Assembly (NCBI GenBank): GCA_964596715.1
Contig: CAZQVL010000002.1
Location: 50,829 to 114,828 of the forward strand
Source: an uncultured Rikenellaceae bacterium
GTDB taxonomy: Bacteria; Bacteroidota; Bacteroidia; Bacteroidales; VadinHA17
DNA length: 64,000 nucleotides
Direction: 5' to 3'
Part shown: piece after piece, positions 1 to 43,112 of the stretch
Position numbering within the stretch: the first letter of the stretch is position 1
How the letters are laid out: the number at the start of each line of letters is the position of its first letter
Made by a program: the position numbers and the translations under genes
The notes under the pieces: model-generated
Database searches by the model: none
Seen by the model: only the letters and a program-made list of their open reading frames with translations
What the model was told of the DNA's origin: nothing

Positions 1-1260
1 ATTTGCACTGATAAGATCACCTAGTGTATCTTCCGGTGGATTCATCATTGCAAAAGGTTTTATACCTCCAACTTCAGTTTCTTTACCGGGGAAGTCGGGA
101 TGTTTAATTTCTCTCCACGGAATAAAGACATCGTTTATTCTGTTTTTTTCAGCAAACTTAAGAAAAGCCACTTCAGCATTCATGTCTTTCTCTACAGGGA
201 ACCACCAGGCAGGTGTGCTGAAGCTGTATCTCCCGTAATGAAAATATGACCATTCCATAAAATTACCGGGAGGATTGCTGGTAACCGGGGCACCTTTTGC
301 TCCGGTAATTTCATGATACCTGTCCGAAACAAGCTTATTAATTATCTCATCACTTTTGGTAATACTGGTGATCTTCCTCCCCTGGGCAGGTCGTTCTGCT
401 GATTTCATAGGTTGTCCAAGGTTATCCTGCGGCCCAAATGCAAAAGTTGCATATATATTAAATCTTTCATAGAGAAAATCAAGCACTGCTTTTGTTTCGG
501 GTTCGGAAACAGGATATAATCCTGCATTAGTACCAAACTCTTCATAATTATATGTAAGATTCCGGTTGAGATTTACTCCGCCCTCGCCATCTTCATTATA
601 TCTTCCGTCTTTATCATTATCAAAACCCTCAGAATAAAGACTATAACCACCGGATTCTCCTTTCGTCAGTTCAGCTTCTGTCATAATCCTTTGATCTTCC
701 TTATTTTTTGTAAATATTCCTGAAGGATCCCTGACACGAATATGTGTTATATAACCATCATTATTAAGATCTTCGTAAGGATCTTCATTAATGGAAAAAT
801 CTTTATCATCATCCGTAGCACTCGTATTAACAACTCTCTCATATTTTGTTTCAGCGAAAAACTGTTCTGTTGCATCAGGACTGATATCCGGAAGAACATA
901 GAAAGTTATTTTATTCAGTAGTTCTTTGATTTCAGGTGTCTGCTGATTTTTGAGGATTGTTGATGCAAATCCTAAAGCAATTTCCTTTCCCAGTATGTGA
1001 TTTCCCTCAATTCCGCCAAGTACAGCGACTGCCGGTTTATTGTCCTTGTCGCCGGTTCCGATGGTAACCAGCCAGATATCTTTACCACCATCAGTTTTTA
1101 CCAGAGATTTAGCACTGCAGACAGTAGAATGATCTCTGCTCATGGCATCGATCATCTGTGCCATCGTTCTGTGGTTATGGTATTTTTCCTGAGATGAAAG
1201 CGGAAATGACCCGATTTTAATAATCAAGGTCAGGATCATGATTTTACGAATTATTTTCAT
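1..1260 (-). CDS. Secreted M14-family zinc carboxypeptidase-like protein, 3' end runs off the window
   Basis: Not in the ORF track. Manual translation from ATG at 1260 gives MKIIRKIMILTLIIK...VLGGIEGNHILG...GVNLNRN...PVSEPETKAV, with acidic DDDKD/EDLNNDG loops typical of Bacteroidota M14-like proteins. Confidence 0.75.
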   Translation of the reverse strand, partial: MKIIRKIMILTLIIKIGSFPLSSQEKYHNHRTMAQMIDAMSRDHSTVCSAKSLVKTDGGKDIWLVTIGTGDKDNKPAVAVLGGIEGNHILGKEIALGFASTILKNQQTPEIKELLNKITFYVLPDISPDATEQFFAETKYERVVNTSATDDDKDFSINEDPYEDLNNDGYITHIRVRDPSGIFTKNKEDQRIMTEAELTKGESGGYSLYSEGFDNDKDGRYNEDGEGGVNLNRNLTYNYEEFGTNAGLYPVSEPETKAVLDFLYERFNIYATFAFGPQDNLGQPMKSAERPAQGRKITSITKSDEIINKLVSDRYHEITGAKGAPVTSNPPGNFMEWSYFHYGRYSFSTPAWWFPVEKDMNAEVAFLKFAEKNRINDVFIPWREIKHPDFPGKETEVGGIKPFAMMNPPEDTLGDLISAN

Positions 1261-4383: not shown

Positions 4384-5775
4384 ATGGATTATGATCTGAT
4401 AATTATCGGAAGTGGCCCCGGAGGTTATGTTGCGGCGATCAGGGCGTCACAGTTGAAAATGAAAGTCGCGGTTATTGAAAAAGCTGAACCTGGAGGTATA
4501 TGTCTTAACTGGGGCTGTATTCCTACCAAATCCCTTCTGAAAAGTGCTCAGGTTTTTGAATATATGAAGCATGCATCAGAATATGGTATAACAACCGAAG
4601 TAGAGGTAAAGCCCGATTTCAGGGCAATAATTGCCCGTAGCCGGGCTGTTGCGGAAAGTATGAGCAAAGGAGTTCAGTTTCTTTTCAGAAAAAACAATAT
4701 TACCTTCATTAACGGATTTGGTCGGCTGTCCGGAAATGGCACGGTTGAAGTTGAAGATTCAGACAGGAACAGGAAAACCTATTCCGCAAAGAATATCATT
4801 CTCGCAACAGGAGCAAGGTCGAAAGAACTTACAGACCTGAAACAGGACAGTAAAAAGATTATCGGCTACAGGGAAGCAATGACTCTTGAAAAGCAACCTT
4901 CCTCGATGGTTGTTGTTGGTTCAGGAGCCATAGGCAGTGAGTTTGCAGGTTTTTACCAGACACTCGGCACCAGCGTTACTCTTATTGAGTTACTTCCCAG
5001 ACTTGTCCCTAATGAAGATGAAGAGGTTTCAAAACAGCTCGAGAGGTCTTTCAAAAAGCTTAAAATGAGGATATTGACTGATTCCATGGTGGAATCGGCA
5101 GATACATCGAAAGATAAATGTATTGTTACTGTCAAAACACCCAAAGGTCACGAAAGAATTGAAGCAGATATAGTATTGCTGGCTGTTGGTGTTACCGCAA
5201 ACCTGGAGGGTATCGGTCTTGAGAAGGAAGGTGTGAAAATTGAGAATGGGAAAGTTGTTGTGGACGATTTTTACAGGACGTTTGTTCCGGGAATCTTTGC
5301 CATAGGAGATATCGTTCATGGGCCGGCACTGGCACATGTTGCTTCAGCGGAAGGAATTATATGTGTTGAAAAGATGGCGGGATTAGATCCTGAACCTCTG
5401 GATTATAACAATATTCCAGCCTGTACATATACAAGTCCCGAAATAGCTTCCTGCGGTCTTACAGAAGCTGCTGCCAGGGAAGCCGGATATGATATTAAGG
5501 TCGGAAAATTTCCGTTTACAGCTTCAGGTAAAGCGAACTCGGCAGGTTCAAAAGATGGTTTTGTGAAATTGATATTTGATTCTGCTTACGGTGAACTGCT
5601 TGGCGCTCATTTGATTGGAGCAAATGTTACAGAAATGATTGCGGAAATAGTCGTGGCAAGGCGACTTGAAACCACAGCCCATGAACTGATCAAGTCGGTA
5701 CATCCTCATCCAACAATGTCTGAAGCTATTATGGAGGCTGCAGCTGCTGCTTACGGGGAAGTAATTCATCTATAA
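4384..5775 (+). CDS. lpdA: Dihydrolipoamide dehydrogenase (E3)
   Basis: GSGPGGY, redox GGICLNWGCIPTK and C-terminal HPHPTMSE; start at MDYD (4384). Confidence 0.95.
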   Translation: MDYDLIIIGSGPGGYVAAIRASQLKMKVAVIEKAEPGGICLNWGCIPTKSLLKSAQVFEYMKHASEYGITTEVEVKPDFRAIIARSRAVAESMSKGVQFLFRKNNITFINGFGRLSGNGTVEVEDSDRNRKTYSAKNIILATGARSKELTDLKQDSKKIIGYREAMTLEKQPSSMVVVGSGAIGSEFAGFYQTLGTSVTLIELLPRLVPNEDEEVSKQLERSFKKLKMRILTDSMVESADTSKDKCIVTVKTPKGHERIEADIVLLAVGVTANLEGIGLEKEGVKIENGKVVVDDFYRTFVPGIFAIGDIVHGPALAHVASAEGIICVEKMAGLDPEPLDYNNIPACTYTSPEIASCGLTEAAAREAGYDIKVGKFPFTASGKANSAGSKDGFVKLIFDSAYGELLGAHLIGANVTEMIAEIVVARRLETTAHELIKSVHPHPTMSEAIMEAAAAAYGEVIHL

Positions 5776-5788
5776 TAATATTCCTTAC

Positions 5789-5814
5789 GCAACCTTTTTT
5801 AGTGAATATGCATC
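5789..5814 (+). promoter_or_regulatory. ECF-sigma-type promoter, probably autoregulatory
   Basis: GCAAC-N17-CATC about 70 bp upstream of the ECF sigma gene, matching the AAC-N17-CGTC class consensus. Confidence 0.55.
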
Positions 5815-5885
5815 AATCTTTTTGGAATTACTGGCTTTTTAGACAATTATTTTATATTTTTATAATCTGAAAAAGGTCAATAACC

Positions 5886-6446
5886 TTGACAGATCTAAAA
5901 AATATAATCAAAGGTTGTCTGGCAGGTAACAGAAGAGATCAGGAACTTCTGTACAGAAGACATGCATCAAGATTATATGCTGTTTGTCTTCAGTATTCCG
6001 CTACTGATGATGAAGCACGTGATATTTTGCAGGATGGATTCATCAAGATTTTTGAAAATCTCGTGCATTATAAGCATGAAGGTTCTTTCGAAGGATGGAT
6101 GCGCCGGATAATAGTCAATACAGCTCTTGAGAAATACCGCAGTAAGCATACTCTTTACAGGGTCGATGATATTGAGTTGATTCCGGAACTTGATGCAGAA
6201 CCCTATAATGAAGATTATACCGGTCTTGAAGCTACTGATCTGCTTGACATTATCAGGGAACTGCCACCGAAATACAGGATGGTCTTCAACCTTTTTGCCA
6301 TAGAAGGTTATTCGCATAAGGAGATAAGCAAAATGGTAAATATTTCGGAGGGGACATCCAAATCTAATCTGTCGCGTGCCAGAGTTATACTACAGAGAAA
6401 AGTGACTGCATATACCGGAATAAAAAAACGGATAGTGAATGAATGA
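5886..6446 (+). CDS. ECF RNA polymerase sigma factor
   Basis: Region 2 (DILQDGFIKIF, FEGWMRRIIVNT) and region 4 (YSHKEISKMVNISEGTSKSNLSRAR); TTG start. Confidence 0.92.
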   Translation: MTDLKNIIKGCLAGNRRDQELLYRRHASRLYAVCLQYSATDDEARDILQDGFIKIFENLVHYKHEGSFEGWMRRIIVNTALEKYRSKHTLYRVDDIELIPELDAEPYNEDYTGLEATDLLDIIRELPPKYRMVFNLFAIEGYSHKEISKMVNISEGTSKSNLSRARVILQRKVTAYTGIKKRIVNE

Positions 6447-31830: not shown

Positions 31831-34119
31831 ATGATGAAGCTGATAGCTTTCAGGATAATGAATTTCCGGTCGATTATTGATACGGACTGGCAAAGTTTAT
31901 CTCCTGACAATATCACCTGTCTTATTGGTCAGAATGAATCAGGGAAGACATCTGTTCTGGAAGCTTTGAGGGCTTTTTATTCAGGAAAAATAACTGAGGA
32001 CATATTAAGAAGCGATCTTTCTTTACCTGAGGTCAGCTGCCGGTTCAGTATCCCGGAAGGCTGGCTTACCTCGGTTACGGATAATCCGGGAACCGAATTG
32101 AAAGAGCTGTTATCAAGCCTTAATCATCTCGAGCTGACAAGGAAATGGCTTCCTGACCTTACGTCAGTTATTTATGTAAGTGGAAAAATAAGTCAATATC
32201 TTGATTCTCTGGAAGATGCATGGAGGCTTTATCTGTATGATGTTACAGTGAAACTGCGGGATGAGATTAATCAGATAAACAACTATGAAAAAGAGTTGAA
32301 AAACCTGACTGATGAGGAATCGGAGATAAAGTTAAAAGAAACACTGGCAAAGGGAAGCGGAAGAGGATTTAAGTTATTTGGGAAAAGAGCGGTTGATTTG
32401 TCTACAGCGCCTAGAAATCAGTATCATAACCTGAAGAATCAACTGGATGAGATAAGAAGCCGTGAAGAAATAATCAGAGGGGAATTATTAAAGAAGAAGC
32501 CAATAGCCAAAGCTGGAGAAAAATGGTTAAAGCTGGAGGAAAGATATTATGCTATCGATAAGCATCTTTCAGAGCTGGCTGTCGCAATGGAGGAAAGGCA
32601 TCAGAAGATGATCCTTCTTGTGAAACCTGACGATGATGGTGATGATATTGAATGGAATAACACTATTAATGATTACAGGAAGACTCGGGCTGAACGGGAA
32701 GTGATGCAGGAGGAGCTTAACAGGCACATAGCCCTGGCAGGATATATTATGGATGGATTCTCCGAAGAGAATGCAGAGAAGAAGGTAAATGAGATAGTAA
32801 GATCATACAAATCCCATTATAACAGTGAGATTCTGGGTAGTAAATACTATGAATACTGTCCGGTTTTTGAATTATTTGAGGATTTTGGCAGTCTGCTGCC
32901 CAACAGGATAGATTTGGATGATATCATGGAAGGAAACACCACGGTTGAGGGCTACAAAGCAGCACGCAATTTTCTTTCCCTGGCACAGGTGAATTATTCA
33001 TTTTTTCAGCAACCTTCAAGACGGATCCTTAAACAGAAAATTGAAAATCTAAATCATAATCTTACAAACAATTTTCGGGAATTCTGGCAGCAGTCAATAG
33101 GCAGGAATAATAAGATAAACATTCAGTTTGATCTCGATCATTATAGTTCTTCCAATGGTGAAAAGACAGGGAAGCCTTATCTTGAGTTCTGGATCAAGGA
33201 TGAGGGTGAGCGTCTATACCCCAAACAAAGAAGTCGCGGTGTCAGATGGTTCCTCTCTTTTTATCTCGAATTACAAGCCTCTGCAAGCAACAGTAGTACG
33301 CCTATGGTTCTACTTGTTGACGAACCGGGAGTAAGCCTTCATGCCCGTGCACAGGAAGATGTTCTCAAAGTATTTGAGGATATCAGCAGGAAAATACAGA
33401 TTATATATACAACACATTCACCTCATCTTGTGGAAATTAATAAACTGCACAGAGTAATGGCAGTACAGCGCGACAATCTTGATAACTATAAAAGTACAAC
33501 AAGAATACTCGATCCTTTGCGATTATCTTCAGCCACACCTGATACATTGACTCCGTTGCAGAGCATTCTCGGGCAGCCTGTGTCTGAAGAAGGATTCTCA
33601 GCAAAGAAATTTAATCTGATTGTAAATGATATAGGATCATTCTGCTTGTTAAATGCTATAATTATTCTTACCAGATTTAAGGGACAGATAAGCCTGATTC
33701 CCTCCACAAACGTTCCTTACATCCCGCTGTTATGTAATATCTTTATAGGATGGGGATTGGAGTTTGGTGTGCTTCTATTTGAAAATGAAAATGAAAACCA
33801 GATGGGGGAGGAGCTGAAAAAAACTGTTTTCAAGACTGAAAGCAGTGGCAGTGAGTTGATAATTAAAATGCCGGAAATGTTCCTGAATGCTGAAGATCTG
33901 TTATCAACACTTGATTTTAAAAACCATATTCTCAAAAGCAGGGAAGGGATTACTGTACCTAATTCTGTTTATGTCAGGGAAAAAGAGATACCGAGGAACT
34001 TTGTGCTGAGCAGGTTCCTGAGTAACGTTAAATCAGGAATGATAAAACTGTCCGATTTTGATGAAGAGACTCTTGAAAATTTTAAACTCATTACTGATCT
34101 TCTTAAAGGTTTGAAATAG
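31831..34119 (+). CDS. OLD/AAA_15-like ABC ATPase with coiled-coil insert and degenerate TOPRIM-like C-terminus
   Basis: NFRSI, Walker A GQNESGKT, RSRGVRWFLSFY, Walker B LLVDEPGVSLH, H-loop TTHSP. Confidence 0.75.
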   Translation: MMKLIAFRIMNFRSIIDTDWQSLSPDNITCLIGQNESGKTSVLEALRAFYSGKITEDILRSDLSLPEVSCRFSIPEGWLTSVTDNPGTELKELLSSLNHLELTRKWLPDLTSVIYVSGKISQYLDSLEDAWRLYLYDVTVKLRDEINQINNYEKELKNLTDEESEIKLKETLAKGSGRGFKLFGKRAVDLSTAPRNQYHNLKNQLDEIRSREEIIRGELLKKKPIAKAGEKWLKLEERYYAIDKHLSELAVAMEERHQKMILLVKPDDDGDDIEWNNTINDYRKTRAEREVMQEELNRHIALAGYIMDGFSEENAEKKVNEIVRSYKSHYNSEILGSKYYEYCPVFELFEDFGSLLPNRIDLDDIMEGNTTVEGYKAARNFLSLAQVNYSFFQQPSRRILKQKIENLNHNLTNNFREFWQQSIGRNNKINIQFDLDHYSSSNGEKTGKPYLEFWIKDEGERLYPKQRSRGVRWFLSFYLELQASASNSSTPMVLLVDEPGVSLHARAQEDVLKVFEDISRKIQIIYTTHSPHLVEINKLHRVMAVQRDNLDNYKSTTRILDPLRLSSATPDTLTPLQSILGQPVSEEGFSAKKFNLIVNDIGSFCLLNAIIILTRFKGQISLIPSTNVPYIPLLCNIFIGWGLEFGVLLFENENENQMGEELKKTVFKTESSGSELIIKMPEMFLNAEDLLSTLDFKNHILKSREGITVPNSVYVREKEIPRNFVLSRFLSNVKSGMIKLSDFDEETLENFKLITDLLKGLK

Positions 34120-34177
34120 ATAGTTTTTATTTTGCACTGTACTGCTGATTTTTTACATTTGTCGGATTTTCGGGTGA

Positions 34178-34243
34178 CCCTCCTTCGCTAAAGCTTCGGA
34201 CTGCGTCCGACGGAGCGGACTTCGTCCGACGAAGTCGGAGGGC
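34178..34243. repeat. Nested palindromic (REP-like) element upstream of tRNA-Ser
   Basis: Outer CCCTCC/GGAGGG arms enclosing TTCGCTAAAGCTTCGGA and a perfect inner palindrome GACTTCGTC-C-GACGAAGTC. Confidence 0.7.
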
Positions 34244-34269
34244 AAAGGTGGCAATAATAAGCCGGAACA

Positions 34270-34357
<88 letters not shown>

Positions 34358-34361
34358 GAAG

Positions 34362-34546
34362 CCAAATTACTCCCACAGCTTGCTGTGGGATTTTTGTTTT
34401 CGGCAGGCCGATCCAGGCTTGCCTGAGTGAGGACTGCAGAAAACAAAAAGATCAACGAGTGAAACGAGTTGGGAGTAATTTGGAGTTGCAGATACCCCAA
34501 AAGGGATCACGCCCGAATTGCATGAGGGCGTAATCCCTCAGACTCC
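34362..34546. repeat. tRNA-linked multi-hairpin (cruciform) element
   Basis: 14-bp outer inverted repeat CCAAATTACTCCCA/TGGGAGTAATTTGG, 11-bp inner inverted repeat, GCTTGC-capped side hairpins, and a further 11/12-bp hairpin at 34503-34537. Confidence 0.8.
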
Positions 34547-34566
34547 TGAACTTACCCCCAAGCCCA

Positions 34567-34586
34567 CTCTCTTAGCCATAAGAGAG
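34567..34586. repeat. Short hairpin after a C-rich tract
   Basis: CTCTCTTA-GCCA-TAAGAGAG preceded by CTTACCCCCAAGCCC. Confidence 0.5.
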
Positions 34587-34787
34587 GAGACTTAAATAAC
34601 AGGATATTAGCAAATTACTACTATAAGGGCATGCTTTATTAAATCATTATAATATTGATCTGTAGATGGATATGTTTTATGATAAAATATGGATAACATA
34701 AATAAAATTGCTTTTAAGCTAAGTAAGGTTTAACTTTGATAAAGCAACAAATAGGATTCAGATTTTTTTTTAGAATCTAATAATCTG

Positions 34788-35528
34788 ATGGAAAGCATTA
34801 TAGAGGATTATACTTGCGATATTTCAAAAAGGTGCCGTCAGAAAGCCATCAAATGCCTTATATGTCTCTTAGTCCTTTCTGGAATATTCTGTTTAATACA
34901 ATGCGGTGAACAAAACGGCAATTCCGACAAAAAACCAGGTATAGATAATCTTACCGATGATTCTCTTCTGACACTGGTTCAATACAGAACTTTCCAGTAC
35001 TTCAGTGACGGGGCCGAAACTACATCCGGGATGGCAAGGGAACGTTATCATGTTGACGGTATTTATCCGGAAAATGATATGAATGTTGTTACTTCAGGTG
35101 GTACAGGTTTCGGTGTGATGGGCATACTGGTTGGTATTGAAAAGGGCTTCATAACGAGGGATGAAGGTCTTAAACATCTTCAGAAGGTTGTCACTTTTCT
35201 CCAGGGTGCTGACCGTTTTCACGGGGCCTGGTCACACTGGATCTACGGCGAAACAGGTAAAGTGAAACCGTTCTCTCAAAAGGATAACGGAGCAGATATT
35301 GTTGAGACTGCTTACCTTATACAGGGGTTACTTGCTGTAAGACAATATTTTGAAGACGGAACCGCATTCAGTATTGAGAAAGACTGGTATTCTAAGAGAT
35401 ATCTTGCCATCGACCAGGGACCAGTAATTGTTATGATCGGGAACTACCGGACAGATTTGCTATGGAATCTTTTTATGTCGTGCCCTGAAATAAAATCGGG
35501 ATTAAATTCACTTGGATTTATTTACTAG
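34788..35528 (+). pseudogene. Glucoamylase-like/GH144 (endo-beta-1,2-glucanase-type) lipoprotein with a large in-frame internal deletion
   Basis: N-terminal motifs (SGMARER, VVTSGGTGFG, RFHGAWSHW, DNGADIVETAYL) join directly at about 35361 to the extreme C-terminal motif (AFS...YLAIDQGP...LLWNLFMSCPE); 246 aa. Confidence 0.75.
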
Positions 35529-35670
35529 TCCGGGTGAACAATAATATTCTGCCAGGGTGAAAAAAATAATGCACATATTGAATAACCTAATTTAAATTAA
35601 ATAACTTCACTCCGTTTTTATAAAACTAACCGATTAACAATATAATCGAAAAATTAAACAATGCATTAAA

Positions 35671-36273
35671 ATGGATAGAAAAATGAAAAACAAGGTGTTT
35701 ATGGGATTAGCAACCCTATTGATGATTGCTTTCCTGGTTGGTTGTGGTAAAGCCCCTCAGGATCAAATTGATGCTGTAAATGATTCTATTGAAGCTGCCA
35801 AAGCTGCTGAGGCTGATCTGTATTTTCCAACTGAATTCGCAGTTGTTCAGGACCAGATGGATGCAGTTATGGTCGACATTGAAGCTCAGAAGTCAAAATT
35901 GTTTGGGAAATATGATGCTGTTAAAATGAAACTTGACTCAACATTAGCACTGGCAAATCAACTTACTGCAAACATTGCTGCTAAGAAAGAAGAGGTTAAG
36001 AAAGAGGTTGAAGCTTTAATAACAGAAATTAAAACAGTTATTAAAGAGAATAAGACACTTATTACTAAAGCTCCAAGAGGAAAGGAAGGCCAGGCTGTTA
36101 TCGACCAGATTGAAACTGAAATGGATACTATCGAAGGTTCTGTTGTTGAAGCACAGGATTTATACGACAAAGGTGCCTTTATGGATGCTCTAAACAAAAC
36201 TAAAGCTGCCAGCGAAGGTGCAACTGGTATCAATACTGAACTGAAGGAAGCTATTGCAAAGGTCAGAAGATAA
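35671..36273 (+). CDS. All-helical coiled-coil lipoprotein (DUF4398-like)
   Basis: Lipobox LVG-C; Ala/Glu/Lys-rich amphipathic helices throughout. Confidence 0.8.
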   Translation: MDRKMKNKVFMGLATLLMIAFLVGCGKAPQDQIDAVNDSIEAAKAAEADLYFPTEFAVVQDQMDAVMVDIEAQKSKLFGKYDAVKMKLDSTLALANQLTANIAAKKEEVKKEVEALITEIKTVIKENKTLITKAPRGKEGQAVIDQIETEMDTIEGSVVEAQDLYDKGAFMDALNKTKAASEGATGINTELKEAIAKVRR

Positions 36274-36356
36274 TTGATATTGAGGGTCCTTATATTTTAT
36301 GAAGTTGGACTAAATATTATTTAATCCACACTGAAGCTGTCGATAAAAGTCATTAA

Positions 36357-36509
36357 TAACCGCAAAATACGCTAAGCCCGTCTTCTCTGCCGGTTGGCGG
36401 ATACAGTGGGAAAATCAGGTGCAAAGTACACAAAGTTATTATTTTCAATATCAACTCTTTGCGCTCGTTACTATCCCGGGTCATCGGGACTTTGCAGCCT
36501 TTGCGGTTA
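36357..36509. repeat. MITE-like element bounded by inverted CGCAAA(G)-type repeats
   Basis: Terminal TAACCGCAAA/TTTGCGGTTA (10/10) with internal GCAAAG/CTTTGC copies. Confidence 0.6.
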
Positions 36510-36554
36510 ATTTATTAACTTAAGACAGCCTCTTTATTAGAATCGCAGGTTGTA

Positions 36555-37667
36555 ATGAGAAAGATTGGGAAATATTTCCTGGTTCCTGCAGTAATTGCAA
36601 TAAATATTCCATTGATAGTATTCATTTTGATCCGTCTTACGCCCCAGCCTCCTGTAAACAAAATGGAATATGCAAGGAAAACACTTTCCGAAGCGAGATT
36701 TAATAAAGCAGATATTTATTCCGAAAAACTTTTTGGTGAAGCAAATCTCCTTTATGACTCTGCAATGTTAAAATGGCAAAATGAAAACAGAAGGTTCATA
36801 TATTTCAGAAATTATGATTGTGTAGAATTGCTTGCTGAAATCTCAGCTGTAAATGCCGGAGAAGCAATTAAAGGTGCGAAAAGTAATGCATCGAATCTTA
36901 TTATCAGACTTCAGCTAAAGATCGACTCTCTTAGAAATATCATTACGGAACTGGGCAAAAACTTTACAACATATCCACTTAGCCCGGAAGTCCGGACTGC
37001 AATTTCGAAGGGTAAATTTTTGCTCAAAGAAGCTGAAATTGATTATAATACAGGTGAGTATGTCAGTGCATACAGGAAAACAAGCGATTCTGAATTGCTG
37101 CTTCGACCATCCTTTGAAATAGCAGGTACAAATCTTATAGAGTATTTCAATTCATTTTCATTATGGAAGAAGTGGACAGACAAAACCATAAACGAGTCGA
37201 AGCTGAACCATAATTATGCTCTGATTATAGATAAATTTTCGCATAAATGTCTGGTATATTATAATGGAGTGAAAAGGTACGAGTACAATGTTGAACTTGG
37301 CCGTAACTGGGTCGGTGATAAACGGGTAAAAGGCGACTACGCAACACCGGAGGGAATGTATAAGATAATAAAAAAAATCGACACTTACAAAACTAAATAT
37401 TATAAAGCGCTTTTGCTCGATTACCCAAACGAAGAGGATAATGAGAGATTCAAACAGGAAATAGCTAATGGTACACTTCCTGCTTCAGCTAAACAGGGAA
37501 GCCTCATTGAGATACATGGCAACGGGGGAAAAGGTATTGACTGGACAGAAGGGTGTATTGCACTTACAGATTCCGAGATGGATGCAGTCTTTAAAATTGC
37601 GAAAACAGGTACACCGGTGACTATAGTCGGATCGACGGTCAATCTACAGCAATTATTAAAGAGATAA
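36555..37667 (+). CDS. L,D-transpeptidase-family protein, YafK/DpaA-like, with N-terminal TM and helical domain
   Basis: GDKRVKGDYATPEGMY, LLDYPNEED, catalytic IEIHG...WTEGCIAL. Confidence 0.88.
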   Translation: MRKIGKYFLVPAVIAINIPLIVFILIRLTPQPPVNKMEYARKTLSEARFNKADIYSEKLFGEANLLYDSAMLKWQNENRRFIYFRNYDCVELLAEISAVNAGEAIKGAKSNASNLIIRLQLKIDSLRNIITELGKNFTTYPLSPEVRTAISKGKFLLKEAEIDYNTGEYVSAYRKTSDSELLLRPSFEIAGTNLIEYFNSFSLWKKWTDKTINESKLNHNYALIIDKFSHKCLVYYNGVKRYEYNVELGRNWVGDKRVKGDYATPEGMYKIIKKIDTYKTKYYKALLLDYPNEEDNERFKQEIANGTLPASAKQGSLIEIHGNGGKGIDWTEGCIALTDSEMDAVFKIAKTGTPVTIVGSTVNLQQLLKR

Positions 37668-37677
37668 CAATCATGCT

Positions 37678-38484
37678 ATGGAAAATGAAAAACTAACAAA
37701 AGGAAGTGTGCACCCAGAAAATAAATCAGGGAATCGTTTTACTGAGATAACGGCTGAAATCATAAAGCATATAAATAATCTTTATCAGAAAATCCTTCAA
37801 AATAAAAAACTTACTGGCCGCCTCCGGTCAGTCATGATATCTGTTATTTATATTTTTATAATCCTTCTTGTCTTTGTATTTATACTATACTTAATCCCTG
37901 GTCTACAAGAACTTACACCTGGCATGACGACAAAAATCATAAACAACAGGGAATTAAAGCAGAATCAGGAATATAACAAACAGATAAGTCTTTTAAACAG
38001 AGAGATTCAATACCTGTCAAGGAAATATAATTCATTTTCAACAGGTCAGTCATATATTATAATTAATACTACTGATAACAGGTTCTTCCTGTACAGGAAT
38101 AAGAAGCTTATACGTGAAGGATTTTGCAGCTCAGGAAGTTATACATTGCTCCGGACCCATGGAGAGAGGAAGTGGATATTTAAAACACCCAAGGGAAAAT
38201 ATTGGATTCAGGGAAAGACCATGTACCCTGTCTGGAGAAAACCCGATTGGGCATTTGTTGAAGAAGGACTTCCGGTTCCTCCTGAGAATGATGTCTCAAG
38301 ATGGGAGTACGGAGTGCTTGGGGACTACGCACTGAGCATAGGTGACGGATATCTGATACATGGTACACTTTACAAACGATTTCTGGGTATGCCTGTAACA
38401 CATGGCTGTGTTCGCCTCAATGACGAAGATCTTAAGGTTATTTACCATACCCTTAATATTGGTTCCAAGGTGTTTATTTTCTGA
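37678..38484 (+). CDS. L,D-transpeptidase (YkuD-type), membrane-anchored
   Basis: FKTPKG, PVWRKPDW, catalytic YLIHGT...PVTHGCVRL. Confidence 0.9.
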   Translation: MENEKLTKGSVHPENKSGNRFTEITAEIIKHINNLYQKILQNKKLTGRLRSVMISVIYIFIILLVFVFILYLIPGLQELTPGMTTKIINNRELKQNQEYNKQISLLNREIQYLSRKYNSFSTGQSYIIINTTDNRFFLYRNKKLIREGFCSSGSYTLLRTHGERKWIFKTPKGKYWIQGKTMYPVWRKPDWAFVEEGLPVPPENDVSRWEYGVLGDYALSIGDGYLIHGTLYKRFLGMPVTHGCVRLNDEDLKVIYHTLNIGSKVFIF

Positions 38485-38506
38485 TCAGACAGTTGGAGGG
38501 AATCCT

Positions 38507-39307
38507 ATGGAAACAGAAACCAGATCATACAAAAGAGGCAGAAAAAATACTATTCTTCTTCTGTCAGTTTTCCTGCCAGCATTCATTTTATATTATACTA
38601 TAATGTCAATTATGGCTCCTGGTAGAAAATTGTCGGTAATAAAGGATGAGTTCAGCTTTAAGCAGGATGAAAGTAACATTAATGATGAAAGGATTGCCTC
38701 TGATTCAGTTTATCTGAACTTATTAAAACAAAAGGATTTTCTCCAGTCAAAGATCACAATGGCAGAAACTGATTCAATCTATCTGACTATTAACCTTAAT
38801 GATAGCACAACCAATATTGAAATAAGCGGGGTCGTTGTTCACACTTCAAAAATGAAAAAAATAGCAACAAGCAAAATTCTCGACAAAGGGGATGATATTG
38901 AAATATTAGAAATGTTATCGTTACCGATGAGTATAGTGAATGATTATTCAACAATTAAGAAAGAACCATTAATGATTAAGATGGCACCCAGGGATACTTC
39001 AGAGTATAAACCTGATATCATCCCTGATACATCTGATTTTGAGTCTGTTAATTATATCCTTGAGTTAGAATGCGGAATAAAGATCCATGTTTATCAGGAA
39101 GAAAATACTGAAATCAGCGACAGGATCCACCTTTTCTGGTTTGACCTGGCTGACAGGATCCGTACTGCTCTCAGATCGATTACAAGTGTTTTTCTTTTAA
39201 AAGTACCTGATTATCAGCCCAGCATAAAGATAAGGCTGCCAAAATCTGACGCAAAGATTCTGTACAGAGCCATTCCGTATCATGGACAGATAGCTGTTTA
39301 CCTTTAG
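38507..39307 (+). CDS. Membrane-anchored protein, probable catalytically dead L,D-transpeptidase paralog
   Basis: YkuD-like entry strand IYLTINLNDS and exit IKIRLPKSDAKILYRAIP, but no HG...GC motif; start at ATG 38507. Confidence 0.55.
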   Translation: METETRSYKRGRKNTILLLSVFLPAFILYYTIMSIMAPGRKLSVIKDEFSFKQDESNINDERIASDSVYLNLLKQKDFLQSKITMAETDSIYLTINLNDSTTNIEISGVVVHTSKMKKIATSKILDKGDDIEILEMLSLPMSIVNDYSTIKKEPLMIKMAPRDTSEYKPDIIPDTSDFESVNYILELECGIKIHVYQEENTEISDRIHLFWFDLADRIRTALRSITSVFLLKVPDYQPSIKIRLPKSDAKILYRAIPYHGQIAVYL

Positions 39308-39390
39308 CACTTCTTTTTTCAAAAAATCATAATCACATATCGAAAAAAAAATGTAGGTTTGAAGAGGACTCTAAAGCTTGTACTTTTTAC

Positions 39391-40668
39391 ATGGAACGAT
39401 TTACTGGTGTTATAGGTATTCTTATTCTACTGGGACTTGCATTCCTATGGTCGAATAACCGAAAAGCCATTAACTACCGTGTTGTTTTTACAGGACTTGG
39501 TCTGCAACTGGCGCTGGCTGTTTTTATTCTTAAAGTGCCACTTGGCCAGGATATCTTTTACTGGCTTGGAAAGGCAATAAATAAGCTTCTCGATTTTTCC
39601 CAGGAAGGTGGATTGTTTGTTTTTGGTGATCTTACAAAAGTAACAGAGATCCTGCCGGAAGGTATTGTGAAGAGTGGTATTTTTTTGTTTGTTTTATTAC
39701 CGACAATAATATTTGTCTGTGTTCTCGTTGCTATGGCTTATCATATTGGTTTAATGCAAAGGATTGTGGCGGTTATTGCCCGGTTCGTTCACTGGGCAAT
39801 GAGGGTAAGCGGCAGTGAGGCTTTGTCGAATGTGGCAAGTGCTTTTGTAGGGCAGGTCGAAGCTCAGATCATGATACGGCCGTATCTGTCAGGTATGACA
39901 ATGTCGGAATTACTGGCTTCAATGACCGGTAGTATGGCATGTATTGCAGGTGGAGTTATGGCTGTATATATCTCAATGGGTGTCCCTGCATCATATCTGC
40001 TCGCTGCAAGCCTGATGGCTGCTCCGGGAGCCCTGGTAATTTCAAAGATAGTCTTTCCTGAAACAGAAGAATCAGAAACAAAAGGGAGAGTAAAGCTCGA
40101 AGTAAAAAAGGAATATACGAACATTATGGATGCTATTTCTCATGGCGCCACCGATGGAATGAAAATATCGATAAATGTGATAGCCATGTTGATCGGTGTT
40201 ATTGCTCTTATTGCACTTGTTGATGCTCTGCTCGGTTATTTCGGTCATTTTCTTGCGTGGGTAGGAGTATCACTTGAAGGAATAGGTCTTCATGTTGAAA
40301 ACTTACGTCTGAAAGATGTTGTAGGTGCTTTTTTTTCACTTTTTGCAATTGTAATGGGTGTTCCGCCTGAAGAATCACTTACTGTAGGCTCATTAATGGG
40401 AACTAAGATGGTAATAAATGAATTTGTTGCCTATACGGATTTTTCACCGATGATACAACAGGGTGTCCTGAGCACCAAATCAGTTATTATTGCAAGTTTC
40501 GCACTATGCGGATTTGCTAATTTCAGTTCCATTGCCATTCAGTTGGGCGGAATAGGTGCGATGATTCCTCATCGAAAAGCTGACCTTGCCAGACTGGGAT
40601 TTAAGGCAATGCTCTGCGGTACTATGGCTTCGTATATTTCCGCCTCGTTGGCCGGGATTTTGTTGTAA
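39391..40668 (+). CDS. nupC: Na+/nucleoside cotransporter (CNT/NupC family)
   Basis: ASAFVGQVEA, LAASLMAAPG, GTKMVINEFVAY, FALCGFANFSSIAI. Confidence 0.92.
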   Translation: MERFTGVIGILILLGLAFLWSNNRKAINYRVVFTGLGLQLALAVFILKVPLGQDIFYWLGKAINKLLDFSQEGGLFVFGDLTKVTEILPEGIVKSGIFLFVLLPTIIFVCVLVAMAYHIGLMQRIVAVIARFVHWAMRVSGSEALSNVASAFVGQVEAQIMIRPYLSGMTMSELLASMTGSMACIAGGVMAVYISMGVPASYLLAASLMAAPGALVISKIVFPETEESETKGRVKLEVKKEYTNIMDAISHGATDGMKISINVIAMLIGVIALIALVDALLGYFGHFLAWVGVSLEGIGLHVENLRLKDVVGAFFSLFAIVMGVPPEESLTVGSLMGTKMVINEFVAYTDFSPMIQQGVLSTKSVIIASFALCGFANFSSIAIQLGGIGAMIPHRKADLARLGFKAMLCGTMASYISASLAGILL

Positions 40669-40678
40669 TTTGTCGTTG

Positions 40679-40767
40679 CGGAGAGAGGGGGGATCGAACC
40701 CCCGGTCCCGCGATAGCAGGACAACGGTTTTCGAGACCGCCGCATTCGACCACTCTGCCATCTCTCC
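40679..40767 (-). tRNA. tRNA-Ser(CGA)
   Basis: Minus strand GGAGAGATGG...GCGGT-CTCGAAA-ACCGT...GGGGGTTCGATCCCCCCTCTCTCCG with long variable arm. Confidence 0.96.
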
Positions 40768-40997
40768 AAAAAATATATAAGACGCATTCGCCATGATGTT
40801 TAAAAGCAACACACCTGCCGAATTGACAAAAATAAGAATTATTTGATTACTGATATCTACAGATTTATGAAGATAACTCTTCAGCACTAACTCTGAAGAA
40901 TGATAAAAAAACTGAAAATCTTTTGATTCCATGGCTGAATAAACTTATTTTGCATAACGGACAGTAAATAAAATAATAACCATTAAAATCTTCTATT

Positions 40998-43112
40998 GTG
41001 AAAAAACTATCTAAAATCTTATTGATTTGCGGATTGGCAGTTTTGGCTTTAACAGCCTGTAAAAATCAACCTGACGTTGATCTGAACAATCCATTTTTTA
41101 CTGAATACAATACTCCATTTAATGTTCCTCCCTTTGAAAAGATCATGGCAAAGCACTACATGCCTGCTTTTGAAAAGGGTATGGCTGACGGAAGAAAAGA
41201 GATTGAGAACCTGGTAAAAAACAGAAAGGAACCTACTTTCGAAAATACAATCGAAGCTCTTGATAAATCAGGAGAATTATTGACAAATGTTGTCAATGTA
41301 TTCTTTGCACAAACTTCGGCAAACACAAATGATTCATTACAGAAAATTGAAGTTCAGATCTCTCCTGAATTATCGGAATTCTACGACGGAATAATACTTA
41401 ATCCTGATCTGTTCCAAAAAGTCAAATATGTATATGATAATCAGGACGGATATAACCTTAATCCGGAGCAGGAGTTTCTCCTGGGAAACCTCTATAAAAG
41501 CTTCGTACGCAACGGGGCTAACCTCAACAAGCAGGATCAGGATACTTTAAAAAAGATGAACCAGAGGCTTTCTATTTTAACTGTCCAATATAGTCAGAAT
41601 GTCCTTGCCGAAACAAATAACTATAAACTGTATGTAACAGGTGATGATCTGGAGGGTTTGCCTGAATCTGTAATTGCCGCGGCGGCTGAAACAGCAAAGG
41701 AAGCAGGTCAGGAGGGTAAATGGGCCTTCACAACACAGAGACCAAGCATCTTTCCGTTTATGCAGTATTCGCCCAACAGGGAACTTCGAAGGGAATTATT
41801 TAATGCTTATACCAACCGGGGAAACAACGGAAATGAATTTGATAATAATGAAATTCTTGCCGAGATTATAAGACTGAGGGCGGAAAGAGCTAAGCTTCTG
41901 GGCTATAAAACTCATTCACATATAGTTCTTGAGCCGAGAATGGCCAAGATGCCTGAAAATGTTTTTACATTATTAGACAATCTCTGGGAAAAATCAATCC
42001 CTGTGGCAAAAAATGAAGTAAAGGAGATGCAGGGAATAATCAACAGGGAGGGAGACAGGTTCATGCTTGAACCTTCCGACTGGTGGTATTATGCCGAGAA
42101 ACTCAGAAAACAAAAATATGATCTTAACGATGAGGAACTGAGACCGTATTTTAAACTTGAGAATGTAAGGGAGGGAGTCTTTACTGTCGCTAATAAGCTC
42201 TTTGGTATCACATTTACACCTCTGAGTAACATCCCACTTCCACATCCGGAAGCCCTGGCTTTTGAGGTGAAAGAGAGTGACGGATCTCATCTGGGAGTTT
42301 TATATATGGATTTTCATCCCAGGACCAGCAAACAACAGGGAGCATGGTGCGGTGAATACCGTAGCTATCATATTGCTGACGGACAGAGTATTGCACCTGT
42401 TGTTACAGTGGTTTGTAATTTTACAAAACCAACTGGTGATCAGCCTTCACTACTCAGCCTTGAAGAGGTTACTACCCTGTACCATGAATTCGGTCATGCA
42501 CTGGATGCCCTGTTCAACAAGAGTACGTATAATCAGACCAATATTGCCTGGGACTTTGTTGAGCTTCCTTCGCAGCTTATGGAACACTGGGCAACCGAAC
42601 CGGAAGTACTTAATTTATATGCAAAGAACTACCTGACAGGTGAGATGATACCTTCAAAACTGGTTGAGAAAATAAAGAACAGCAAATATTTTAACCAGGG
42701 TTTTGAAACAGTTGAATACCTTGCAGCCTCACTGCTTGATATGTCTTTTCATACACTTGAGACTCCGGCAATTATTGATGTTCAAAGTTTTGAAAAGGAA
42801 TATTTCGATAAGATCAATCTGATCCCTGAAATCGTCTCCCGTTACAGAAGTACTTATTTTCTTCATATTGCAGGTGGCTACGATTCAGGTTATTACAGCT
42901 ACATATGGGCTGGAGTGCTTGATAATGACGCTTTTGAAGCCTTTAAGGAAAAGGGATTATTTGATAATCCAGTTGCAACATCCTACCGTAAGAACATCCT
43001 TGAGAAAAATGGTACAATGGATGCTATGCAAATGTATATTAACTTCCGTGGGAGAGAACCTGAAATAGAGCCCCTGCTGAAGAACAGAGGGTTGATCCCG
43101 GAAGAAATTTAG
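40998..43112 (+). CDS. dcp: M3-family peptidyl-dipeptidase (lipoprotein)
   Basis: Lipobox (LTAC), HEFGH, DFVELPSQLMEHW, GYDSGYYSYIWA. Confidence 0.9.
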   Translation: MKKLSKILLICGLAVLALTACKNQPDVDLNNPFFTEYNTPFNVPPFEKIMAKHYMPAFEKGMADGRKEIENLVKNRKEPTFENTIEALDKSGELLTNVVNVFFAQTSANTNDSLQKIEVQISPELSEFYDGIILNPDLFQKVKYVYDNQDGYNLNPEQEFLLGNLYKSFVRNGANLNKQDQDTLKKMNQRLSILTVQYSQNVLAETNNYKLYVTGDDLEGLPESVIAAAAETAKEAGQEGKWAFTTQRPSIFPFMQYSPNRELRRELFNAYTNRGNNGNEFDNNEILAEIIRLRAERAKLLGYKTHSHIVLEPRMAKMPENVFTLLDNLWEKSIPVAKNEVKEMQGIINREGDRFMLEPSDWWYYAEKLRKQKYDLNDEELRPYFKLENVREGVFTVANKLFGITFTPLSNIPLPHPEALAFEVKESDGSHLGVLYMDFHPRTSKQQGAWCGEYRSYHIADGQSIAPVVTVVCNFTKPTGDQPSLLSLEEVTTLYHEFGHALDALFNKSTYNQTNIAWDFVELPSQLMEHWATEPEVLNLYAKNYLTGEMIPSKLVEKIKNSKYFNQGFETVEYLAASLLDMSFHTLETPAIIDVQSFEKEYFDKINLIPEIVSRYRSTYFLHIAGGYDSGYYSYIWAGVLDNDAFEAFKEKGLFDNPVATSYRKNILEKNGTMDAMQMYINFRGREPEIEPLLKNRGLIPEEI

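Follow-up and report, generated by a model that had tools for sequence, protein, structure and literature searches.

A conserved four-gene module of Bacteroidota that encodes a stalk lipoprotein and three YkuD-type proteins: a candidate system for tethering a membrane to peptidoglycan

The four-gene locus and its conservation

The locus analyzed here lies in a 64,000-nucleotide stretch of DNA (hereafter, the window) from an uncultured Rikenellaceae bacterium of the order Bacteroidales and comprises four co-oriented open reading frames (ORFs), denoted a, b, c and d, of which the first encodes a helical lipoprotein and the other three encode membrane-anchored proteins with YkuD or YkuD-like domains, the hallmark of L,D-transpeptidases (LDTs) and related hydrolases (Table 1). 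A preliminary description of this DNA read the quartet as a self-contained set of substrate, writer, eraser and pseudo-enzyme for covalent attachment of a membrane to the cell wall, by analogy with the lipoprotein Lpp of Escherichia coli, its attaching enzymes LdtA-C and the detaching enzyme DpaA (YafK). All four ORFs were found as described. The translation of a probably begins at M5, because the homologues begin with MKNK; the ORF of d opens at 38402, and its real start, METETR, lies past the stop of c, given that the homologues are all approximately 266 amino acids (aa) long.

Table 1. Coordinates of the module, its features and the neighboring genes in the window
Feature	Position	Residues	Strand	Description
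Module	35671-39307		+	Four co-oriented ORFs, a-b-c-d
Gene a	35671-36273		+	Helical lipoprotein, 200 aa; ORF and lipobox
a, predicted start	35683	M5		
a, lipobox Cys codon	35743-35745	C25		L-V-G-C
a, basic C-terminal tail	36250-36270			IAKVRR
Spacer a/b	36274-36554		+	281 nucleotides (nt); no canonical terminator
Gene b	36555-37667		+	Inner-membrane-anchored, hydrolase-type YkuD protein, 370 aa; PF03734, E-value 3e-17
b, transmembrane segment		~4-31		Single, N-terminal
b, helical stalk	36645-37154	31-200		
b, YkuD domain	37215-37625	221-357		
b, catalytic Cys codon	37554-37556	C334		
Gene c	37678-38484		+	Inner-membrane-anchored L,D-transpeptidase, 268 aa; Pfam YkuD, E-value 5e-19
c, transmembrane segment	37831-37887	52-70		Preceded by a short cytoplasmic tail, followed by a coiled-coil linker
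c, YkuD domain	38050-38478	125-267		
c, catalytic Cys codon	38407-38409	C244		Inside THGCVRL
Gene d	38507-39307		+	Inner-membrane-anchored, Cys-less YkuD-like protein, 266 aa
d, transmembrane segment	38549-38605	15-33		
d, YkuD-like region	38771-39301	89-265		
ATPase gene	31831-34119		+	OLD/ABC-type, 762 aa
tRNA-Ser (gct)	34270-34357			
Glycoamylase ORF	34788-35528			Truncated
nupC	39391-40668			Nucleoside transporter type
tRNA-Ser (cga)	40678-40767		-	

To assess the conservation of this arrangement, we compiled two sets of loci. A scan with one genome per species returned 213 genomes with a relative of d, of which the best 80 were used as the close set; in these genomes, all of them metagenome-assembled genomes (MAGs) of Bacteroidales, d is 50-61% identical to its counterpart in the window. 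Among such close relatives the whole neighborhood, including nupC and an M3 peptidase gene, is syntenic and hence uninformative on the linkage of the four genes, so distant homologues of d were chosen for a scan of metagenome contigs, which yielded a further 80 loci where d is only about 25-45% identical to that of the window. The neighboring ORFs at all 160 loci were assigned with profile hidden Markov models. The complete, ordered a-b-c-d array was found at 68 close and 40 distant loci; the rest were cut by a contig end (11 and 40, respectively), apart from a single close locus with a split a gene. The order is thus kept in all 108 loci with enough sequence, a point on which the preliminary description had made its reading depend. 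A nupC gene is located within 2.5 kb downstream of the module at 74 of the close loci and at none of the distant ones, so the four genes stay linked despite the changed surroundings. The gaps between b and c and between c and d are short (medians of 1-16 nt across the loci). The arrangement is not due to chance.

Two loci depart from the common pattern. At locus L031, a species genome, a is represented by two adjacent ORFs upstream of b, either because the gene is split or frameshifted or, possibly, because the assembly is wrong. At the distant locus L110, an a-like lipoprotein with a Thr/Pro-rich tail is encoded 3.6 kb downstream of c-d (5423-6067), on a contig that stops just before c.

The module is conserved across several orders and in many environmental members of Bacteroidota, with named relatives in Bacteroidales, Prolixibacteraceae and Marinilabiliales/Salinivirgaceae, and in one MAG labelled Imperialibacter. 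No cultured carrier appeared among the sequence-cluster look-ups, which returned MAG names only; because, in addition, the clusters are small, the heavily sampled gut Bacteroides presumably lack the module. The source bacterium itself turns up in salt-marsh metagenomes.

The lipoprotein and its relationship to the stalk of b

The product of gene a starts with one hydrophobic segment followed by a lipobox, the cysteine of which is the only one in the protein and is conserved in all homologues. It has 1240 homologues and, at about 70% identity among the top ones, is better conserved than b, c or d. BLASTP aligns a colinearly with residues 31-176 of b (E-value 1e-4), and a profile-profile comparison of 102 diverse a sequences with 110 diverse b stalks using hhalign yields a probability of 97.9% (E-value 3.9e-13, 169 columns), compared with only 11% when low-diversity alignments are used. 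Judged by these comparisons, a is a free-standing paralogue of the N-terminal helical stalk of b, approximately 170 residues in length. The candidate assignment of a as an Lpp-like coiled coil was rejected in favor of this homology, and no match to Lpp was obtained in Pfam, NCBIfam or the PDB; of the proposal that a is a helical counterpart of Lpp, the lipobox is retained and the likeness to Lpp is not.

A search of the PDB sequences with the a profile gave no significant match to a solved relative. In Pfam, a has weak, sub-threshold similarity to two families of helical lipoproteins, DUF4398 (PF14346), which is hit by 7 of 15 diverse members (best E-value 0.0055), and DUF2291 (PF10054), which is hit by one member (8.4e-5); one homologue is named 'DUF2291 family protein' by NCBI. 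The functions of both families are unknown, our search having found no literature on that of DUF4398, so this likeness adds no mechanism.

In the AlphaFold2 model of b, the stalk is predicted with a local confidence score (pLDDT) above 90 and consists of three long helical segments, each of about 45-55 residues (approximately residues 34-78, 88-136 and 144-198). A Foldseek search with the full-length model recovered YkuD matches only (E-values 2e-5 to 6e-4, TM-scores up to 0.53) and no structural match to the stalk. Given the homology with this modelled stalk, mature a probably folds into three long helical segments packed as an elongated bundle, the opposite ends of which would carry the lipid anchor and the C-terminal tail, respectively.

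At the C-terminus, a near-invariant AIAK(V) motif is followed by a tail that is variable but always basic. Three types of tail, which track the phylogeny, can be distinguished: short ones, such as KVRR and KVKGKK; (PAAK)n repeats, 10-35 residues long, that always end with PKK or PKKK (e.g., loci L014, L017, L023, L034 and L050); and KARI[KR]F. The (PAAK)n spacers ending with PKKK suggest that the C-terminus is the working end of the protein. The last lysine is always located within 6 residues of the end: in the 102 diverse sequences, it is 0, 1, 2, 3, 5 or 6 residues away in 36, 25, 10, 14, 15 and 2 cases, respectively.

The three YkuD-type proteins

The motif IHG...THGCVRL of c is the full transpeptidase signature, including the arginine after the catalytic cysteine. 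The top NCBIfam matches of c are E. coli-type L,D-transpeptidases, and among solved structures it is closest to the L,D-transpeptidases 4lzh and 9tyw, which supports the earlier identification of c as a canonical, transpeptidase-type YkuD enzyme.

The second enzyme, b, contains the motifs VGDKRVKGDYATPEGMY, DYPNEED and IHG...TEGC, on which its initial assignment to the YafK/DpaA type was based, and its closest solved relatives are Bd1075 (7o21), E. coli DpaA (8ikr), Csd6 (4xzz) and Pgp2 (6xj6), with the identities of these structures taken from PMC10653827. The YkuD enzymes of the hydrolase clade lack the arginine after the cysteine and possess a lysine in loop L1 that binds meso-diaminopimelic acid (mDAP) (PMC8263019, PMC10653827); this lysine, K83 in DpaA, binds the carboxylate of the mDAP D-centre and is common to the carboxypeptidases. 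In an alignment of b with DpaA from the E. coli K-12 genome, the L1 lysine is retained (K256, invariant in 34 b homologues), the YYKA portion of the L2 motif is identical (R108-Y109-Y110-K111-A112 in DpaA, K281-Y282-Y283-K284-A285 in b), and C143-Y144-A145 of DpaA corresponds to C334-I335-A336, within the sequence GCIAL and without arginine after the cysteine. These features support the placement of b in the YkuD hydrolase clade of DpaA, Csd6, Pgp2 and Bd1075.

Within this clade, L,D-carboxypeptidases have an aromatic pocket for D-Ala that is formed by a tyrosine in L2 and a tryptophan two residues before HG, the position of Met133 in DpaA (PMC8263019, PMC10653827). In b, this position is occupied by E319, which is invariant in close relatives and replaced by Q in one distant homologue; thus, where Pgp2 has GIWIHG, b has LIEIHG, with glutamate in place of the pocket tryptophan and with the L2 tyrosine kept (Y282/Y283). 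Taken together, b is a hydrolase-type YkuD enzyme without a D-Ala pocket, DpaA-like in loop L2. The cleft residues specific to DpaA are Gln86, Arg108, Lys130, Tyr131 and Met133 (PMC10653827), of which Q86, K130 and Y131 are changed in b to K259, S316 and L317. The orthology of b with DpaA was rejected given this mismatch of cleft residues and a score of 35.3 bits against the DpaA equivalog model NF040599 of NCBIfam, for which the cut-off is 365. The earlier assignment of b thus stands for its motifs and for the hydrolase clade, and not for DpaA proper. Pfam detects no second domain family C-terminal of the YkuD domain of b.

The family of d is large (1001 homologues, 452 clusters at 50% identity) and has no match in Pfam or NCBIfam. 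Its AlphaFold2 model has a pLDDT of 69.8 and a predicted template modelling score (pTM) of 0.65. When this model was compared with 350,542 PDB chains using Foldseek, the best 50 matches were all L,D-transpeptidases (E-values 2e-4 to 2e-2, probability 0.87-1.0), with low TM-scores of 0.18-0.47, compared with up to 0.53 for the true YkuD domain of b. When d was aligned by hhalign to the YkuD domains of b and c, the match was weak (probability of 15%), so the fold assignment leans on Foldseek. No alignment column of the d family (149 sequences) contains more than 20% cysteine, and the segment of d aligned to HGC.R reads P-x-I-K-I-R-L, such that both the catalytic cysteine and the histidine of the HG position are absent. 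The invariant residues of d lie in a long loop, K152-x-P...A160-P-K/R-D-T-x-E166...P173-D-T. With moderate confidence, d can be regarded as the LDT-shaped protein devoid of the catalytic His and Cys that it had been taken for at the outset.

Transcription and expression of the module

In most relatives, the module is laid out as a monocistronic a gene followed by a tight b-c-d operon, as indicated by the short gaps within b-c-d and by a terminator-like structure after a: the 70 nt immediately downstream of a form a strong hairpin with a T-run in 86% of 111 relatives (median z-score -4.5). The spacer between a and b is longer in the window than in the relatives (281 nt vs a median of approximately 80 nt) and is moderately structured (z-score -2.3), with no such hairpin and T-run; it contains a 9-bp inverted repeat, AACCGCAAA / TTTGCGGTT, the arms of which are approximately 140 nt apart. 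No Rfam family was detected in the spacer, the Rfam scan of positions 33500-41500 having returned two tRNAs only. Scans for sigma-70 promoters and terminators showed no enrichment, with a tool that does not cover Bacteroidota promoters. Contigs from two marine-sediment metatranscriptomes extend over a, over portions of the spacer and of c, and over the 5' end of b (positions 36133-36400 and 36482-36716 are among those covered), so that a, b and c are transcribed in situ.

Codon bias is a general sign of translational selection for high expression. As an index, we used the fraction of T-ending codons in four-fold families, which is 0.60 for a, the strongest outlier in the window, compared with 0.349 +/- 0.065 for 45 window genes. 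In the relatives, the index is 0.485 for a vs approximately 0.30 for b, c, d and nupC, and is the highest for a at 96 of 111 loci. Read as translational selection, this bias suggests that the product of a is probably abundant. None of the genes suitable for calibration (EF-Tu, GroEL, DnaK and similar ones) was found in the window or in the fetched loci.

Comparison with known systems

The closest parallel is the E. coli system of Lpp, LdtA-C and DpaA (YafK, LdtF), where likewise the lipoprotein has a basic C-terminus, the YkuD transpeptidase has the arginine motif and the YkuD hydrolase is without it; DpaA and b have in common the L1 lysine and the YYKA of loop L2, and a, like Lpp, is apparently expressed at a high level. 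The differences are nevertheless substantial. Lpp forms a trimeric coiled coil of 58 residues, the last of them an invariant lysine, whereas a has approximately 175 mature residues, a variable terminus and a paralogous relationship to the stalk of b. In E. coli, the genes lie apart from one another and encode soluble enzymes, in contrast to the adjacent genes of the module, the enzymes of which are all membrane-anchored on stalks. Furthermore, b is not orthologous to DpaA and has a glutamate at the Met133 position, and the Cys-less YkuD-like protein d is an extra component.

The carboxypeptidases Csd6 of Helicobacter pylori, Pgp2 of Campylobacter jejuni and Bd1075 of Bdellovibrio bacteriovorus (MEROPS C82.A01) are similar to b in the GDK...GD..TP.G.Y signature, the long L1 and L3 loops and GCIAL without arginine, and differ from it in the tryptophan of the D-Ala pocket, which is a glutamate in b. 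These shape-determining enzymes also carry a C-terminal NTF2-like domain, in contrast to the N-terminal transmembrane segment and stalk of b.

With regard to potential acceptors, the known LDT substrates include Coxiella LimB, attached through an internal lysine, Dickeya OutB, an inner-membrane protein attached through a C-terminal Lys-Lys, and Legionella Lpg1810, attached through a C-terminal Lys-Thr (PMC12274547, PMC12729407). An acceptor therefore need be neither Lpp-like nor lysine-ended and may reside in the inner membrane, and the tails of a (KK, KKK, K-x and the internal AIAK) are within this range. Unlike a, these acceptors are all proteobacterial, are encoded apart from their enzymes, and none of them is homologous to a. 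Altogether, the module would resemble the Lpp/LdtA-C/DpaA system in its proposed working, yet falls outside the definitions of Lpp, of a DpaA orthologue and of the carboxypeptidases.

A candidate tethering mechanism and the alternatives

The module and its domain relationships are solid; as the most likely hypothesis on its function, although one that we consider somewhat short of probable, we propose that a is covalently and reversibly tethered to mDAP stem peptides, with c as the writer, b as the eraser and d as a non-catalytic partner, roles that are supported at the level of motifs and folds. The system would consist of two units. The first would be a, an abundant stalk lipoprotein with a lipid anchor at one end and a Lys/Arg-rich tail at the other, and the second would be b-c-d, three inner-membrane-anchored proteins, each with a YkuD-type domain, held on helical stalks. 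The transpeptidase c would form an acyl-enzyme with a peptidoglycan tetrapeptide and transfer the stem onto a lysine within the basic tail of a or close to it, thereby linking a membrane covalently to the wall. The DpaA-like hydrolase b, lacking the D-Ala pocket, would hydrolyze the bond between a and peptidoglycan, its active site being placed level with the tail of a by virtue of the paralogous stalks, and d might function as a non-catalytic scaffold, a regulator, or a binder of the tail or the stem. The anatomy of the module is in keeping with such coupling, and in favor of the scheme are the linkage of the four genes, the motifs of b and c, the YkuD-like and Cys-less character of d, and the homology of a to the stalk of b; for a as a stoichiometric partner or substrate, its codon bias, separate terminator, transcript coverage and basic tail with a lysine near the end can be added. 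The peptidoglycan of Bacteroides is of the mDAP type (10.1101/2023.04.17.537164), in line with this scheme. A stricter version, in which the module is a dedicated, self-contained reversible tether whose own transpeptidase ligates the abundant stalk lipoprotein through a tail lysine, whose hydrolase finds it by means of the paralogous stalk, and whose dead YkuD protein controls the balance, appears doubtful to us. As to the module claimed at the outset, the conservation of the four-gene set bears it out, with the correction that a is, in most relatives, transcribed on its own.

Several observations weigh against tethering. The preliminary description had itself cautioned that a ends with AKVRR rather than with a terminal lysine, which is indeed the case, and among the 102 homologues 36 end with K, 34 with R and 32 with a hydrophobic residue, so that the invariant C-terminal lysine of the Lpp type is not observed. 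Of the cleft residues specific to DpaA, b keeps only Arg108, conservatively, as lysine, and by sequence it is equally near to the carboxypeptidases Bd1075, Csd6 and Pgp2 and to DpaA. Moreover, DpaA-like proteins are widespread in Lpp-less bacteria, where their roles are unknown (PMC8263019). The abundance of a is deduced from codon bias that is uncalibrated against the ribosomal genes of the lineage, and the stalk geometry of a is taken from the model of b. Given the inner-membrane anchor of b and the stalk that it has in common with a, a parallel pairing of the stalks would place a in the inner membrane as well; b, c and d are all anchored there, and the membrane of a is not predictable from sequence. 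The abundance of a, its stalk geometry, its membrane and the identity of the substrate are all points that we infer. With respect to the missing invariant lysine, protein-peptidoglycan links made by LDTs are known to involve a C-terminal Lys, Lys-Lys, Lys-Thr or an internal Lys, in one case with an inner-membrane acceptor (PMC12274547, PMC12729407); given this variety, the finding weakens an Lpp-type mechanism, with attachment as such still compatible.

The main alternative for the same four proteins would be the remodeling of stem peptides, in a complex where c makes 3-3 cross-links, b is an L,D-carboxypeptidase or L,D-endopeptidase by which substrates are supplied or removed, much like Csd6, Pgp2 and Bd1075 in the control of cell shape, d is a scaffold, and a is a non-covalent regulator, adaptor or periplasmic ruler comparable to LpoA/LpoB or NlpI that binds through the domain it has in common with b. 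The carboxypeptidase Bd1075 is the top profile match of b among the solved structures (E-value 1.8e-6), followed by Csd6 and Pgp2, the last of which also shares GCIAL with b, and in E. coli a set of a transpeptidase and DpaA/LdtF is reported to be active in the remodeling of 3-3 cross-links (PMC6428754). The variation of the C-terminal lysine of a fits this scheme, as does its paralogy with the stalk of b, given that paralogous helical domains often associate. What makes such a complex rather unlikely, in our view, is that the NTF2-like domain found in the shape-determining carboxypeptidases is missing from b, that the codon bias and the separate terminator of a suggest a far higher abundance than that of the enzymes, which would be odd for a regulator, and that the basic tail and the (PAAK)n-KKK extensions would have no obvious role. 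Furthermore, b has an invariant glutamate instead of the D-Ala pocket tryptophan that is present in Pgp2 and reported for LD-carboxypeptidases (PMC10653827).

If b and c do attach and detach proteins, the substrate could still be something other than a, for example, outer-membrane beta-barrels linked through their N-terminal residues, as in Alpha- and Gammaproteobacteria, with a as an accessory or merely co-regulated structural protein. Attachment of beta-barrels by LDTs is widespread, and DpaA-like genes are present in the species concerned (PMC8263019, PMC12729407); the sequence of a, for its part, gives no sign that it is an acceptor. We consider this improbable, because a is strictly adjacent to b-c-d across orders and is homologous to the stalk of b, both of which argue for a direct relationship, and because no beta-barrel gene is conserved beside the module, the flanks of which differ between the close and the distant loci. 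Finally, the four genes might be neighbors by descent only, with no common function, as could be suspected from the synteny of close relatives, which encompasses the whole neighborhood including nupC and the M3 peptidase gene. The order is, however, kept in 40 of 40 informative distant loci with changed flanks, the gaps within b-c-d are 1-16 nt, three of the four proteins apparently have one fold and the fourth has a domain in common with b, all of which renders mere descent exceedingly improbable.

To our knowledge, the attachment of the outer membrane to the wall in Bacteroidota is known only in non-covalent form, through Pal and OmpA-type proteins. In the literature that we searched, neither such a module nor a covalent wall tether of any kind is described for Bacteroidota, and a review of L,D-transpeptidases from December 2025 reports covalent links between proteins and the wall in Proteobacteria only, with no mention of Bacteroidota. 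If the tethering hypothesis is true, the phylum would have its first covalent tether between membrane and wall, one without precedent in that the substrate, the writer, the eraser and the regulator are encoded together. It would also assign functions to the many DpaA-like proteins of Lpp-less bacteria, to the unannotated d family (approximately 450 clusters at 50% identity) and to DUF4398-like helical lipoproteins, and the natural series of a tail lengths could act as ready rulers of the membrane-wall spacing. Because the module sets a candidate substrate beside a candidate writer, eraser and pseudo-enzyme, the question of attachment becomes testable.

Neighboring genes

The gene just upstream of the module in the window that encodes an OLD/ABC-type ATPase has as its top PADLOC match AriA of the PARIS defense system (6.4e-27), followed by Old, PtuA and GajA, and adjoins the tRNA-Ser (gct) gene; it looks like a defense gene inserted at the tRNA. 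The similarity of the truncated glycoamylase ORF to the Glycoamylase profile is confined to the last 44 positions of the latter. At related loci, the region upstream of a contains glycoamylase genes, either intact or broken into several pieces, and no ATPase gene was seen there. Downstream of d, the nupC gene is directly followed by the tRNA-Ser (cga) gene on the minus strand, where metatranscriptome contigs from other organisms pile up.

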